Source of the DNA: an uncultured Verrucomicrobiae bacterium
GTDB lineage: Bacteria > Verrucomicrobiota > Verrucomicrobiia > Chthoniobacterales > Chthoniobacteraceae
DNA: 64,000 nt
Assembly: GCA_963769025.1 (NCBI GenBank)
Contig: CAVYKI010000012.1
Span: forward strand, 160,001 to 224,000
Reading direction: 5' to 3'
A program made the position numbers and the translations under genes. The notes under the pieces were generated by a model. That model did no database searches and was not told where the DNA came from. It saw only the letters and a list, made by a program, of their open reading frames with translations. Shown here in pieces: positions 2,400 to 64,000 of the stretch. Position 1 is the first letter of the stretch, and every line of letters begins with the position of its first letter.

Positions 2400-3715
2400 T
2401 GAAGCGGTTCTTAGTTCCTCGTTCTTGGTTCTTGGTTTGTTCCTGCTCGGTCGCGCTTGTTGGTTCGTTGGTCGTTCAAGCGACCGCTGCCAACGAAGAA
2501 CCAAGAACAAAGAACCAGGAACGAAGCCTTTCCGCCCCGAGGCGGGGAAGTTTCCCCCTCTGGAAAAGGCGCACTCCTACCGGGGCGAACTCGTGTTCGT
2601 GGATCATGCCAACCGCCGCGGCAGCATCCGCGTGCAAGCGGCGGGCACGTTTTTCCGCAACGCCCCGCATCCCTTCGCCATGCTCCCCTACGGCATCGTC
2701 CGCTATCACGGCGCACCGGCGGATCTCCGGGACATCCCGCTCGGCACCGTGCTGCACGTCCGGGCCTTTCTCCCGCCGGACCCGAAGATCTCCGCCGTGC
2801 CGGTGTTGCCGGTCAACAACAAGGAGAAGATCGCGGGCTACAGCGGCACCGGCGTCGCACCCGCCGAGAACCACGTCCTCCTCCTCGAAGACGAGCCCAG
2901 CCACTGCCTGCGCGAGGGCAAGGTCTGGAAGCTGAAGGAAGTGGACCTCAAGAACAACGAGGGGATGATCGTCGCCAGCCGCGAACCGAAGGCCGGCGGA
3001 GACGGCAAGGCCAGCGAGGAAAAGCTGACCTTCGACGCCGCCACCCGCATCTGGCGCGGCCGCGAATGCCTCGGCGATCGCCGACTTGATCGCCGAGGGC
3101 ACCTGGCCCGCCGAGCGGGAAGAAATCGCTCGACGGCCAGGCCGTCCTGCTCGGCATCACCTGGAAGCCCACGCCGGATGGCGTGTTCACCCGCTTCCAC
3201 ATCTCGGACATCTGGCTGGATGACACCGCCACGCAACGCGCCGCGCAGATTCAAACCGAGACGCACAAGGCCTTCATCCGCAGCCGCTGGATGCCCGCCT
3301 GGGTCGATGCCGTCGAGTATGGCAAGTTCGGCCGCGCCACCGTGACCGCGACCTTGTTCGGCGGCATGGACGCCTCCCTCTACGCCGATTTCCAGAAAGG
3401 CAGCCAGGTGCTCGATGAATGCGGCCGAGAACACCTTGAAGCACGCCGGCGGCGCCTACGGCCCCGCGCACATGGCCTCCAAAGGCCCCATCCTCGACGT
3501 CACGAAGGCGTCCGGAGATGTCCCTCTGGGCAGCAGCGGCATCCAAATCCGCTTTGAGACGGACCTCATCATCGAAGGCATCCGCCCCACGCAGAGTCGT
3601 CCGCGTCCGCCCCGCGAACTGGCCCCAGGTGCAAGTGCCCCGGGAGGAATACCTGAACGACGGCTCCAACCCCGAAGACCGCTTCCCGACCCCGGCCATC
3701 TTTCCCAAATACTGA
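2399..3715 (+). CDS. Uncharacterised secreted protein, copy 1 (frameshifted paralog of 9761..11017)
   Basis: Pieces [26 protein letters not shown]...[13 protein letters not shown] align with the intact 418-aa ORF; single-base insertions near 2525, 3080, 3115, 3415, 3590. Confidence 0.85.
2407..2527. repeat. Inverted heptamer arrays (GGTTCTT-like / AAGAACC-like) inside signal-peptide coding region
   Basis: gttcttagttcctcgttcttggttcttggtt versus aacgaagaaccaagaacaaagaaccaggaacgaag. Confidence 0.75.
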
Positions 3716-60369: not shown

Positions 60370-60450
60370 ATCCGCAGATTACGCAGATTTTCGCAGAGCC
60401 TCGGAAACGGGATGCCTCAAAAGTCTGCGCCCATCTGCGGAATCTGCGGA
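60370..60450. repeat. Intergenic palindromic element made of CGCAGATT-like 9-mers
   Basis: atccgcagattacgcagattttcgcaga ... tctgcgcccatctgcggaatctgcgga, between convergent tadA and queA. Confidence 0.85.
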
Positions 60451-60457
60451 ATCTCCG

Positions 60458-61510
60458 CTACACGATCAGCATGCAGTCGCCGTAGCTGTAGAAGCGGTAG
60501 CGCTCGCGGATGGCCTCTTCGTAGGCACGCAGGATGAACTCCCGTCCGGCGAGTGCGGACACGAGCATGAGCAGCGTGCTTTGCGGGAGGTGAAAGTTCG
60601 TCAGCAGCATGTCCACGGCGCGCGGTTGGAAGGGCGGGCGGATGAAGATGTCGGTGCTTCCCGCGGCGGCGCGCACGGGACGACCGATGCTTTCGAGCAC
60701 GCGCGCGCTCGTGGTGCCGACGGCGACGATGCGTTTCGCGGCGTTGCAGGCCGCGGCGGTTTCCTCGCTCACTGCGAAGCGCTCCGAGTGCATCCGGTGG
60801 TCCGCGAGATCGTCCACGAGCACGGAGCGGAATGTGCCCACGCCGACGTGCAGCGTGACGAACGCGTGCGGCACACGCGCGAGGATTTCCGGGGTAAAGT
60901 GCAGCCCCGCGGTGGGCGCGGCCACGGCTCCGGCCTCGCGCGCGAAGACCGTCTGGTAGCGCACGTTGTCCGACGCCTCGGGCTTGCGCTCGAAGTACGG
61001 CGGGAGCGGGATTTCGCCGTGCGTGTCCAGGTCCACCGCGTCGAGGAATTCGATCATGCGTTCGCCTTCCGGCTCGATGCCGCGCACGACGCCGGCCACG
61101 CCGCCGACATGCACGAGCGCGCCGAGCCGCATCTTGCGCCCGGGCTTCACGAGGCATTTCCAGAGGTAGGGCGTCCTCGCCGAGGACGCCGACGCATCGG
61201 CCGCTGTGGCCCCGGGATTCTCGCCGGAGGAATGGGGCGCTTTCGGCGAAAGCGCCCTGCCCTCGAGGAACAGCAGCTCGATCTTGCCGTCGTCCGAGAA
61301 TGCCCGTGCCGGGATCACGCGCGTGTCGTTCAGCACGACGAGATCGCCGCTTTCCAGATACGACGGGAAGTCGGCGAACTTCCGGTGCTCGATGCGCTGT
61401 TCGGCGCGGTGCAGCACCATCATGCGGGAACCATCGCGTCGCTCGGCAGGGTAGCGCGCGATGAGTTCTTCCGGCAGGGTGTAATCGTAGTCGGCGGTTC
61501 GCAGGCTCAC
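60458..61510 (-). CDS. queA: S-adenosylmethionine:tRNA ribosyltransferase-isomerase with in-frame insertion
   Basis: DYDYTLPEELIA, NDTRVIPAR, PLPPY, AVAAPTAGLHF, TNFHLP, YRFYSYGD; GTG start. Confidence 0.96.
   Translation of the reverse strand: MSLRTADYDYTLPEELIARYPAERRDGSRMMVLHRAEQRIEHRKFADFPSYLESGDLVVLNDTRVIPARAFSDDGKIELLFLEGRALSPKAPHSSGENPGATAADASASSARTPYLWKCLVKPGRKMRLGALVHVGGVAGVVRGIEPEGERMIEFLDAVDLDTHGEIPLPPYFERKPEASDNVRYQTVFAREAGAVAAPTAGLHFTPEILARVPHAFVTLHVGVGTFRSVLVDDLADHRMHSERFAVSEETAAACNAAKRIVAVGTTSARVLESIGRPVRAAAGSTDIFIRPPFQPRAVDMLLTNFHLPQSTLLMLVSALAGREFILRAYEEAIRERYRFYSYGDCMLIV
61163..61264. mobile_element. REPIN-like inverted REP pair (GTAG type) in frame inside queA
   Basis: + strand GGTAGGGCGTCCTCGCCGAGGACGCC; - strand GGCAGGGCGCTTTCGCCGAAAGCGCC. 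Confidence 0.85.
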
Positions 61511-61568
61511 AGGGCGGCGAAGGTTCCGCGTCGCGCGCGCGGCGTCCACTTCCGAATTGGAGCGCGAG

Positions 61569-61693
61569 TGTGGAGCGCTGGCGTCCCCGCCGGCCACGCT
61601 CATCTGCGAAGCACCATTCTTCTTCGCACGCCGGACAGAGAAGGTGGCGCTTCGCGTTGTGTTGCATGGCCGGCGGGACGCCAGCGCTCCACA
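61569..61693. mobile_element. REPIN-like inverted REP pair (GGAG type), intergenic
   Basis: tgtggagcgctggcgtccccgccggcca ... tggccggcgggacgccagcgctccaca. Confidence 0.88.
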
Positions 61694-61736
61694 TTTCCAA
61701 ATCGCCCTCCGCATTCCGCCGCTGTATGCGCGGGCC

Positions 61737-64000
61737 ATGCGAATGCTCCCCCTCCTGCTCATCACCGCCGCGGTTTGCAGCGCCGCCGTCACGCCGCCGG
61801 AGCAGATCAAGGTGCCGCCGGGGTTCAAGGTCGAACTCCTGCGCGAAGCCGGGCCGCGCGAGGGCTCGTGGATCTGCATGGCGCAGGACGGCCAAGGGCG
61901 GCTCTACATTTCGCCGCAGGGCGCGATCCCGGAGAGCGGCTTCGGCAAGGACAACAAGTGGGGCGGCATGTGGCGCACGACGATCGTCATGACCGAAAAT
62001 CCCACCGGCAATATTCAGCCGCACATCATCAAGTGGGAAAGGGTGAAGGTCCCCGTCGGCGACGCCATGGGCATGCTCTGGGCGTTTGACTCCCTCTACG
62101 TCTCCGGCATGGGGCCGCAGGGGCGCGGCATCTACCGCTGCACTTCCAGCAAGCGCGACGGCAACCTCGACACCGCCACGCTTTTCAAGGCAATCCCCGG
62201 CGGCGCGGGCGAGCACGGCGCCCACGCCATCGTCCTCGGGCCGGACAAAAAGCTCTACATCGTCAACGGCAACAGCACCGGCATCCTCGACGGCCTCGCG
62301 CCCGACTCCCCGTATCGCCATTGGGGCGAGGACGACCTCCTCCCGCGGCTGAAGGATCCCGTCGCCACCTTCTTCGACAAGCTCAAGGCCCCCTACGGCT
62401 GCGTCTATCGCACCGACGCCGACGGCACGAAGTGGGAGCTCTTCGCCGGCGGCTTCCGCAATCCCTACGACATCGCCTTCAACCCCGACGGCGAGCTCTT
62501 CACCTACGACAGCGACATGGAGTGGGACCGCGGCCTCCCGTGGTATCGCCCCACGCGCATCCTCCACGTCGTCCCCGGCGGCGAATACGGCTTCCGCGAA
62601 GGCAGCGCGAAATGGCCCGCGTATTTCCCCGACTCGCTCCCCGCCGTGGCCGACATCGGCGTCGGCTGCCCCACCGGCATGAAGTTCGGCACCGAGGCGA
62701 AGGGCTGGCCGGAAAAATACCGCCGCGCGCTCTTCATCCACGACTGGACATATGGCCGCATCCTCGCCGTCACCCTCCACGAGAAAGGCGCGAGCTACAC
62801 CGCGAGGAACGACCTCGCCAGCCATACCTACCCGCGGGACGCCGAGGCGAACGGCGACGTGGAAGTCTTCCTCAGCGGAAAAGGCATGCCGGTGACGGAC
62901 CTGGAATTCCTGCACGACGGCTCGATGGTCTTCACCGTCGGCGGCCGCGGCACCGCGGCGGCGCTGTATCGGGTGAGCTACGTTTCCGGCGCCCCCTCCG
63001 GGGCGCATCGCGATTCCACCGGTAATCCGGTGGTTTCACCACCGGCTAATATCCTTCGTCCCTCCGGGACGAACGCAAGCGCACCGTCAACGAGCAATCC
63101 ATCCGCAAACTATCCGCCCGCCAACAATGCGCCGGAGGCGCAGCGGAAGTTAGCCGGTGGTGCAGCGAGCGAAGCGAGCGCAACCACCGGATCGCTGACA
63201 GCAAAAGCAAGCGCCCCGGATGGGGCGCGGGAAGGCGTCAGCGAAAAGCCAAAGCATTCAGGCGGTTTCGATGAAGCCGTCGATCGGGAAGACGTGCGCA
63301 AGATGATGCTTTGGTCCGCGTCCGTTGCCACTCGCGACCACTATGCCCTCCAAGACTCGTGGCCATCAAACCGCGACATCGGGACACCTCGGGGGCTTGC
63401 CGGTAGAATGGTGATGGAATCCGGCCTTTACCCCGAGTTCAGAAACAAAGCCCTCAATGAAGCGGATGATGCTATCGCACTTCCTTCATTGCTCGCGCTC
63501 GCCCGCGTGGGTGCCTCTACAGATCAAGCGGCCATTCTCGCAAGACTCACCAAATTCCCCCTCGCCTCGCTCTCCGACGACTTGAAGCTCCTCAAACTCC
63601 GCGTCCTCGAACTGAGCTTCGCGCGGCAGGGGCGGCCTTCGGAGGAACGGGTGAAGGCCCTGATGGAGGAACTGCTGGCGCATTACCCGGCAACGAACGT
63701 GGCGAAGGGCGCGGCGGCGAGTGGAGCGCTGCCGTCCCCGGCGGCCACGACACCAAACGGCGAAGCCGCACTTCCCAATGGCGCACGGAATGCAAACGCG
63801 CATGAAAGTGGCGCTGCGCGCGGAGCGACCTGGCCGGCGGGGACGCCAGCGCTCCACTCGCCGTCGCTCCCCGTGGATGACCCCGCGTGGCGGCTGAACC
63901 GCGAGCTTTGCGCCCTCCTCGTCTGGCTCTCGAATCCCGAACTCGGCGAACCGAACTCCGCACTTCCGGCGAAGGCGCAGGGCGCGGCGCGTCCGCAATC
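61737..64000 (+). CDS. PVC-type putative heme-binding / membrane-bound dehydrogenase-like beta-propeller protein, 3'-partial (absent from the ORF track because it runs off the window)
   Basis: MRMLPLLL signal, IKVPPGFKVELL, GEHGAHAI, GGFRNPYD, TYDSDMEWD, WYRPTR, GCPTG, DWTYG, GGRGT, LLALAR, LNREL; I read no stop codon in this frame from 62940 to 64000. Confidence 0.88.
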   Translation, partial: MRMLPLLLITAAVCSAAVTPPEQIKVPPGFKVELLREAGPREGSWICMAQDGQGRLYISPQGAIPESGFGKDNKWGGMWRTTIVMTENPTGNIQPHIIKWERVKVPVGDAMGMLWAFDSLYVSGMGPQGRGIYRCTSSKRDGNLDTATLFKAIPGGAGEHGAHAIVLGPDKKLYIVNGNSTGILDGLAPDSPYRHWGEDDLLPRLKDPVATFFDKLKAPYGCVYRTDADGTKWELFAGGFRNPYDIAFNPDGELFTYDSDMEWDRGLPWYRPTRILHVVPGGEYGFREGSAKWPAYFPDSLPAVADIGVGCPTGMKFGTEAKGWPEKYRRALFIHDWTYGRILAVTLHEKGASYTARNDLASHTYPRDAEANGDVEVFLSGKGMPVTDLEFLHDGSMVFTVGGRGTAAALYRVSYVSGAPSGAHRDSTGNPVVSPPANILRPSGTNASAPSTSNPSANYPPANNAPEAQRKLAGGAASEASATTGSLTAKASAPDGAREGVSEKPKHSGGFDEAVDREDVRKMMLWSASVATRDHYALQDSWPSNRDIGTPRGLAGRMVMESGLYPEFRNKALNEADDAIALPSLLALARVGASTDQAAILARLTKFPLASLSDDLKLLKLRVLELSFARQGRPSEERVKALMEELLAHYPATNVAKGAAASGALPSPAATTPNGEAALPNGARNANAHESGAARGATWPAGTPALHSPSLPVDDPAWRLNRELCALLVWLSNPELGEPNSALPAKAQGAARPQ
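62984..63233. mobile_element. Two inverted copies of a multi-hairpin REP-like element, in frame inside the CDS
   Basis: Both arms read hairpin(CCGGAGG)-TTAGCCGGTGGTG..AACCACCGGAT-..GCGCCCCGGAnGGGGCGC. Confidence 0.85.
63711..63867. mobile_element. REPIN-like inverted REP pair (GGAG type), in frame inside the CDS
   Basis: 37-nt arms 63711-63747 and 63831-63867 with 3 mismatches; same family as 61569-61693. Confidence 0.9.

Follow-up and report, generated by a model that had tools for sequence, protein, structure and literature searches.

The closest described counterpart of the elements considered here comes from the same phylum. According to the accessible text of Di Nocera, De Gregorio and Rocco (2013, PMC3733652), Opitutus terrae has the most intragenic GTAG repeats, and the supplement lists 70 rows of intragenic repetitive extragenic palindromic sequences (REPs) in 62 open reading frames (ORFs), assigned to three families (GTAG-17, -18 and -19). 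The targets include QueA (Oter_2037, residues 101-124) and UvrA, many of the insertions are dimers, some ORFs are hit twice or by two families, and the authors propose neutral insertion in loops or linkers. The inverted REP doublets of the REPIN-RAYT systems, as described in the available parts of 10.1101/2021.07.10.451892, PMC6006769 and PMC8266576, are almost exclusively extragenic, reach hundreds of copies and coexist with a resident RAYT transposase, and RAYTs of subclass 2.4 are reported to carry in-frame REPs inside their own gene (PMC6006769). On single-stranded REP DNA the foot of the hairpin directs RAYTs to CT or CA, where they cut and religate the strand, and the spread of REPs in vivo is said to be unexplained (PMC8266576). 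A further relevant group are the 'TIRtrons' (PMC3733652), i.e. elements of the IS200/IS605-type TnpA with long inverted repeats. Here we analyse a 64,000-nt stretch of DNA ("the window") from an uncultured Verrucomicrobiae bacterium, which corresponds to positions 160001-224000 of contig C12 in a 13-contig, 5.34-Mb assembly with a completeness score of 83% (genome G000), and in which palindromic elements of unrelated families lie in frame inside queA and inside the neighboring gene of a PVC-type heme-binding CxxCH protein (the "61737 gene"). An initial annotation of the window named the Rickettsia palindromic elements as the classic precedent; the in-frame REPs of O. terrae, which likewise reach QueA and UvrA, are closer, and the core phenomenon, i.e. 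REPs of several families in frame within proteins, is already published for this phylum (PMC3733652).

We consider it probable that the elements are gene-less palindromes of unrelated families, copied in trans by Y1 HUH transposases and kept in tolerant surface loops, which would make the locus the work of several parasites and one selective filter rather than of one host system. This explanation is built on the anatomy of the DNA, on empty and alternative alleles, on partner genes located elsewhere, and on the scarcity of frame-breaking copies together with a bias in reading frame, all of which are directly observed. Element A (61163-61261, minus strand; arms 61165-61190 and 61235-61261) is a GTAG-footed REP doublet in queA. 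Element C (62984-63233, plus strand), which adds 85 aa to the 61737 protein, consists of two ends, facing each other, of an element of the IS200-type TnpA, and element D (63707-63871, plus strand; core 63721-63857) is a GTGG-footed REP doublet with 41-nt arms that are 90% complementary and an inverted repeat that reaches 14 nt outside the family arm. Translation shows all three to be open in the frame of the host gene, and the three unrelated in-frame palindromes of the initial annotation are thus present where it placed them. The intergenic copy it assigned to one of these families also proved genuine: element B (61569-61693), a GTGG-footed doublet between the divergent starts of queA and the 61737 gene, belongs to the family of D, with which it has a 29-nt arm in common at 93% identity, and its terminal arms pair at 19/19 bp (fold z = -9.0, 0/200 shuffles equally good). 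The annotation was right about C and D in the 61737 gene, but it missed a third in-frame insert there, which starts at 63948 on the plus strand, runs to the last position of the window (64000), continues for ~150 nt past it and terminates in a 7-nt-periodic inverted repeat, as well as a frameshift beyond the window. It also missed element E, a fifth family just outside the range it flagged, an intergenic inverted repeat with 9-nt-periodic arms between tadA and queA (60371-60450; fold z -5.3). Altogether seven profiled elements and the third 61737 insert are packed in 5.5 kb (60.3-65.8 kb; C12 up to 225811), and the initial 60 kb of the window yielded no element of any profiled family. A further inverted repeat, outside the profiled families, lies between genes at window positions 2410-2526; its 28-nt arms are made up of short periodic units.

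The arms of family A start with GTAG in 67/81 cases, with GCAG in 8/81 and with GTGG in 2/81; those of B/D start with GTGG, and the ends of C have no GT[AG]G foot. Doublets with the feet directed outward account for 26/51 family-A elements and 2/3 B/D elements. At each of ten positions of the family-A stem 73-80 of the 81 arms are paired, and alternative pairs occur at five of them (e.g. CG 48/GC 24; TA 34/GC 30/CG 13; TA 44/CG 34), which bears out the paired compensatory changes noted earlier. In C the gene-facing sides of both ends are directed outward, opposite to the arrangement around TnpA genes; the order expected of an internal deletion derivative (left end, then right end) was not found, and the two halves differ in history. 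Part of the left arm of C (63027-63071, plus strand) resembles Acido-Lenti-1 (RF01687), which is classed as a small RNA by Rfam and appears as a table entry in PMC2864571; the match covers the full length of the model with 36.2 bits, against a gathering threshold of 37 (E 1.1e-5).

Analysis of the flanks of related sequences reveals separate partners for the families: two RAYT types, IS200-type TnpA, GxxExxY genes and four-helix-bundle genes. A RAYT in a metagenome-assembled genome of Pontiellaceae has clusters of family-A arms on either side (L201; NF047646, 88.2 bits, cut-off 80), doublets of the B/D type flank RAYTs in congeners G024 and G001 (90.1 and 84 bits; L268, L271; one alignment row, L272, was disregarded for its wrong coordinates), and C arms flank IS200-type TnpA in G001 and G019 (NF033573, 60.3 and 57 bits, cut-off 55), with arm pieces 76-95% identical to TnpA flanks in L027 and L028. 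The partner of C passes NF033573 (IS200/IS605 TnpA) and not NF047646, so that C has neither the GT[AG]G foot nor the RAYT partner of a REP. An arm of E flanks a GxxExxY gene in the relative G014 (L292), and two further families of this genome flank four-helix-bundle genes. Because the families belong to unrelated partner genes, there is no single system that writes loops, as the initial annotation had proposed; the proposal also fits poorly with ~9/10 of copies outside genes and with cognate transposases that were not found in this assembly. As a separate observation, GxxExxY and four-helix-bundle genes (L290-L318) have short periodic inverted repeats at their flanks, of which there are also gene-less copies, some in frame, including one 1.4 kb from a GxxExxY gene (G000:C3:614643-614742).

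Genes for RAYT/Y1 proteins flanked by the same repeats, a search for which the annotation had suggested, were found in other genomes, but not in this assembly. No RAYT was found in the window, in agreement with the annotation; the genome nevertheless holds one short RAYT, found with queries of another RAYT type, in frame inside thrS (L289:938-3463, G000:C10:13437-15983, minus strand). There a complete RAYT-like domain (NF047646, 73.9 bits, below the cut-off of 80) lies between 58-nt inverted repeats within a ThrS that scores 567.9 bits, above its cut-off. It was considered as the mobiliser of A, B/D or C and rejected, its arms being a different, low-copy family. The sole match of Pfam Y1_Tnp in this genome is a 347-aa Y1 HUH protein that is extended at its C-terminus and lacks flanking REPs (L001:826-1869, minus strand), and no short TnpA was recovered from the genome by tblastn with IS200-type queries. 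In relatives (L273-L280, L284, L287) CarB, ClpB and a nucleotidyltransferase-like protein contain in-frame RAYT domains with REP arms, and RAYT domains are also fused to RecF and to a CDF transporter. The nucleotidyltransferase-like site holds cassettes in four congeners and is empty here, and the other orthologous sites of this genome are likewise without RAYT.

Searching the genome with 12 family profiles gave 239 elements (among them A 51, B/D 3, C 5 and E 19). The arms have further genomic copies, as predicted (A 81, B/D 5, C 8), and the reversed-profile controls gave 0 matches each, a control that is uninformative for the periodic families F4, L and I. The count of intragenic versus intergenic copies, proposed earlier as a check, did yield 26/239 elements that are internal and in frame, but 163 are intergenic and 50 lie at gene ends, in a genome at least 77% of which is covered as coding by our home-made gene calls on a frameshift-ridden assembly. 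The internal share differs between families (A 9/51, F3 2/47, F4 0/26, E 0/19). Each of the 19 scanned host ORFs has a match in Pfam, and for at least five (transpeptidase, Hsp70, thiolase, DUF7133 and DUF1553) the insert lies inside the matched domain or splits it; the spacer peptides are unlike one another between copies. In uvrA (L255, G000:C9:977237-981121) we observed two family-A doublets in frame, reminiscent of the double inserts of O. terrae uvrA. Low-copy families outside the 12 profiles contribute further internal elements. A generic inverted-repeat scan recovered 23 internal matches vs 28 and 26 in codon-shuffled controls, which makes its loose tier unusable, and its strict tier 7/111 internal vs 3 in the control; de novo k-mer clustering for repeat families was dominated by coding repeats and was abandoned.

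Copies that break the frame are rare, even though random insertion is expected to break at least 2/3. A classifier based on flanks gave 19 elements in frame vs 8 candidate broken ones, none of which (0/8) proved to be a disrupted gene. For the 77 elements of five relatives, comparison anchored by homology gave 7 in frame vs 1 broken, the latter (L342) being a truly disrupted gene; 10 others are in frame by open frame alone (one such call, L325, resembles a chance match), 57 are intergenic or terminal and 2 lie at contig ends. Frame-breaking copies are thus rare, as the initial annotation would have it, but with one broken gene in a relative its "only" frame-preserving is too strong. The choice of frame is biased as well: among the internal family-A arms (n=15) all reverse arms (7/7) are read in one of three open frames (p ~0.001), and Arg-rich frames are used by 2/15 vs 0.42 expected (p 0.018).

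In QueA, element A makes a 33-aa loop between two beta-strands, vs 8 aa in the nearest empty alleles. It takes the place of a 24-nt loop of queA with no target duplication seen at the junctions, and in general the inserts replace loop DNA. The insertion site is a turn of a few residues in solved QueA structures, and in the predicted model, the fold of which matches QueA, the insert lies between two strands with a predicted local distance difference test (pLDDT) score <50. In the model of the 61737 protein C falls where the predicted propeller meets the helical domain, and D in an inter-helix loop, which has 64 aa here vs 4 aa in 6/12 orthologues. Contigs from sediment carry alleles whose joints bypass A, B, D and E, and in a close relative without B the joint omits 130 nt. 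Relatives thus do without the insert peptides (in QueA, in the D loop and in the sediment contigs), as the initial annotation expected orthologues to do. A contig from a soil run is identical over the 269 nt immediately downstream of C, and contigs of RNA libraries from two studies, representing a 97%-identical relative, read from the body of the 61737 gene into the half-arm of C. No sequencing run contained half of the sequence words looked for, and these matches are not taken as a sign of the habitat.

Comparison of congeners reveals a turnover of occupants at the same loops. Among 28 queA loci of the genus, 27 of which could be parsed, the loop has 6-8 aa in 17 and 14-20 aa without a clear palindrome in 6, and the remaining 4/27 have palindromic inserts of 30-46 aa, of family A in G000, G014 and G004 and of an unrelated family in G010. 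The tree of QueA places the window protein as sister to two empty alleles (support 100/99), separate from the other two carriers of family A, which would correspond to two gains or to recombination. In the 109 parsed sequences from the best 120 QueA matches listed, a loop of at least 15 aa is present in 23/43 of the best and in 9/66 of the others, and the long loops among these parsed sequences bear the signatures of seven repeat types, at the peptide level only. The family-A pattern is found in 7/30 genomes of the genus. The D loop is occupied by three families across 5/12 orthologues, the linker of UvrA by three families in 7/8 genomes, and the third 61737 loop of orthologues is filled by REP doublets or by tandem arrays; these arrays (L092, L093, L095, L097, L099) have a 21-nt period and reach up to 228 aa. 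The core of the 61737 gene (window 62400-62700) is 93-99% identical among six species, the queA genes of which are 83-90% identical, and this identity suggests recent exchange between species. The right half of C (~63130-63233) is common to 6/13 orthologues, including five congeners, and the left half is seen only here. The shared half varies at 23/96 sites vs 22/228 in the core (~2.5 times as often), which may reflect relaxed constraint on this half. Third codon positions did not change more often in the insert than in the core (Fisher p 0.77), and there is no codon-position signal.

The two host genes are of different quality in this assembly. The queA gene for S-adenosylmethionine:tRNA ribosyltransferase-isomerase (60458-61510, minus strand) is full-length, scores 392.8 bits against the NF001140 cut-off of 324 and is the one copy found in the genome. 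Two QueA homologues with an organism name were available, both from Chthoniobacteraceae and 80% identical to the window protein, which makes it likely that the host belongs to this family (Verrucomicrobiota). The 61737 gene (61737-64000, plus strand, extending beyond the window) was identified by profile matches, below the cut-off for the N-terminal part and above it for the C-terminal domain, and its protein is predicted to comprise a beta-propeller, a helical domain and a cytochrome c domain. Its reading frame is broken ~150 nt past the end of the window, so that the ORF has 830 aa and the heme-binding C-terminus is encoded in a different frame; no read was found to cross the break. This break is probably an assembly indel, because all complete orthologues (11/11) among the 12 loci compared are open, the remaining one being truncated by a contig end, and because the assembly is error-prone, with 16 frameshift junctions per 41 kb aligned against the ORFs of relatives.

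In order to account for the repeated use of the same loops, several other scenarios have to be considered. Target choice, and not selection alone, could make the hotspots, if HUH transposases cut an existing hairpin with a GTAG or GTGG foot and swapped its doublet, so that frame and position would simply be inherited. This would explain why the D loop holds two different GTGG-footed families at the same place with outer junctions alike, why the inverted repeat of D is 14 nt longer than the family arm, as if nested in an older hairpin, why the empty B site of a relative already has the terminal 9 nt of the element, why independent A insertions in QueA have a common 3' junction, and why seven elements crowd into 60.3-65.8 kb, the initial 60 kb being free of profiled families. 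The ancestral 8-aa loop of QueA, however, has no hairpin foot, and the same loops accept non-RAYT repeats and tandem arrays, which a sequence-specific target leaves unexplained; we regard this scenario as unlikely. Slightly less credible still is the idea that the in-frame doublets are leftovers of whole REP-RAYT-REP cassettes that lost the transposase domain. Complete RAYT domains with REP arms do lie in frame in ThrS of this genome and in CarB, ClpB and the nucleotidyltransferase-like protein of relatives, and the last of these sites matches the REP dimer of O. terrae Oter_1564 by coordinates, the sequences not being aligned; yet the majority of doublets are intergenic, doublets already flank free RAYT genes, the ends of C are oriented opposite to those around TnpA, and no RAYT domain is seen in the 61737 orthologues or in the best 120 QueA matches listed.

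Two scenarios concern the fate of the inserts rather than their origin. A host that keeps the repeats as a loop-diversifying system with adaptive peptides would be in keeping with the 61737 protein having at least three hypervariable loops across 12 orthologues, with the retention of the half-C peptide in six genomes and with the non-random frames. We find this improbable, as the hosts are unrelated housekeeping and metabolic proteins, the peptides at one loop differ by species and close relatives manage without them, the insert has no third-position excess over the core, and the families go with unrelated partner genes. Finally, the inserts might never reach the protein, being cut from the RNA or residing in dead or misassembled genes; the frameshift of the 61737 gene in this assembly and the strong hairpins of the elements could be taken as signs of this. 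It is very improbable all the same, given a single-copy queA that scores above its family cut-off, insert-bearing orthologues that are open in independent assemblies, the soil-run contig with zero differences over 269 nt just downstream of C, the half-C arm kept in RNA-library contigs, and a conservation of frame that would be needless were the inserts spliced.

The explanation we prefer, mobilisation in trans followed by purging, can be put as a sequence of events. A RAYT (for A and B/D) or an IS200-type TnpA (for C) would bind the hairpin on single-stranded DNA, cut near the four-base foot and transfer the doublet, a short stretch of the target being replaced without duplication. Copies that cause a frameshift, introduce a stop codon, land in structured parts of the protein or code for Arg-rich peptides would be purged; those that persist would be translated and nearly neutral, a floppy peptide rich in Ala, Ser and Pro being tolerated. 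A loop that has once proved tolerant would be hit repeatedly, which would leave congeners with different families at the same place, and some alleles may additionally have been moved by homologous recombination. It is also possible, albeit as a tentative extension, that the housekeeping proteins of this lineage have tolerant loops which serve permanently as landing pads, where HUH elements and unrelated repeats swap palindromes, that a RAYT may shelter there in frame (in ThrS, and in ClpB and CarB of relatives) like an intein that never splices, and that gene-less doublets are the empty state of the same cycle.

Several points weigh against mobilisation in trans and purging. Searches of the 83%-complete assembly recovered no cognate transposase for A, B/D or C, so that any movement in this genome may not be recent, and B/D (three elements) and C (five) are low-copy. 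An identical UvrA junction is present in G000, G014 and G004, which, together with the identity of the 61737 core, suggests that some alleles are shared by descent or through recombination. In two family-A cases the element is located in a tail beyond the end of the Pfam domain, and some of the 26 internal elements are 21-nt matches that may be native coding sequence. The counts are small, neither the arms of one doublet nor orthologous sites can be treated as independent, which makes the p-values look stronger than they are, and the 7:1 ratio spans just five distinct in-frame sites; moreover, the scarcity of elements within genes could stem from target choice and not from selection. The low pLDDT of the inserts is partly due to missing alignment support, and RNA libraries can contain DNA.

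In the literature covered, which did not extend to subscription papers, we found no paper that describes families recurrently succeeding one another at a single loop in congeners, a reading-frame bias of such inserts, housekeeping proteins with a whole RAYT cassette in frame, GxxExxY or four-helix-bundle genes with repeats at their flanks, or the use of the same loops by non-RAYT families; a study of indels in PVC proteins (PMC3000692) contains no occurrence of 'palindrom', 'repeat' or 'mobile'. The surprise is limited, the core phenomenon being already known in the phylum. Filled and empty alleles of one loop in ~30 congeners nevertheless provide natural before-and-after junctions, at which target sequence is replaced instead of being cleanly interrupted, and allow the presumed selection filter on frame and peptide to be counted; they also offer a free-living example of enzymes that gain 25-85 residues from repeats, and show where proteins naturally tolerate insertions.

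As regards known systems, the REP/REPIN-like character claimed in the initial annotation applies to A and B/D, by their foot, doublets, covariation and the RAYT flanks in relatives, but not to C, which is not a REP. As in the REPIN-RAYT systems of the published accounts cited above, there are inverted REP doublets with a variable spacer, a GT[AG]G foot, covarying stems and arms around a Y1 HUH gene; here, by contrast, a family has 3-51 elements, ~1/10 of them internal, its cognate RAYT was not found in the assembly, and its distribution in the genus is patchy. A and B/D thus work like REPINs and share most of their features, but have lower copy numbers, and a resident cognate RAYT was not found in the 83%-complete assembly. 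The arms of C are the ends found around TnpA genes of congeners, as in IS200/IS605-type elements, but here they are gene-less, reversed and in frame. Rickettsia palindromic elements, in the available text of PMC10969869 and PMC3733652, likewise comprise several palindromic families translated in frame in unrelated proteins; they are described as a CGTC-tagged ~150-bp unit with a conserved peptide, whereas our elements have GTAG or GTGG feet and varying peptides, a comparison made without alignment. The REPs of O. terrae are the nearest case, with several families in frame in proteins of a member of the same phylum; their families, not aligned with ours, are taken to be different. In addition to REPs, the genome analysed here has a doublet of IS200-type ends and repeats linked to GxxExxY and four-helix-bundle genes, and its inserts reach 60-85 aa. 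Moreover, the inserts of O. terrae in genes of the same category lie mostly at different sites, as far as the accessible part of PMC3733652 indicates, whereas here the families replace one another at one and the same loop across congeners.

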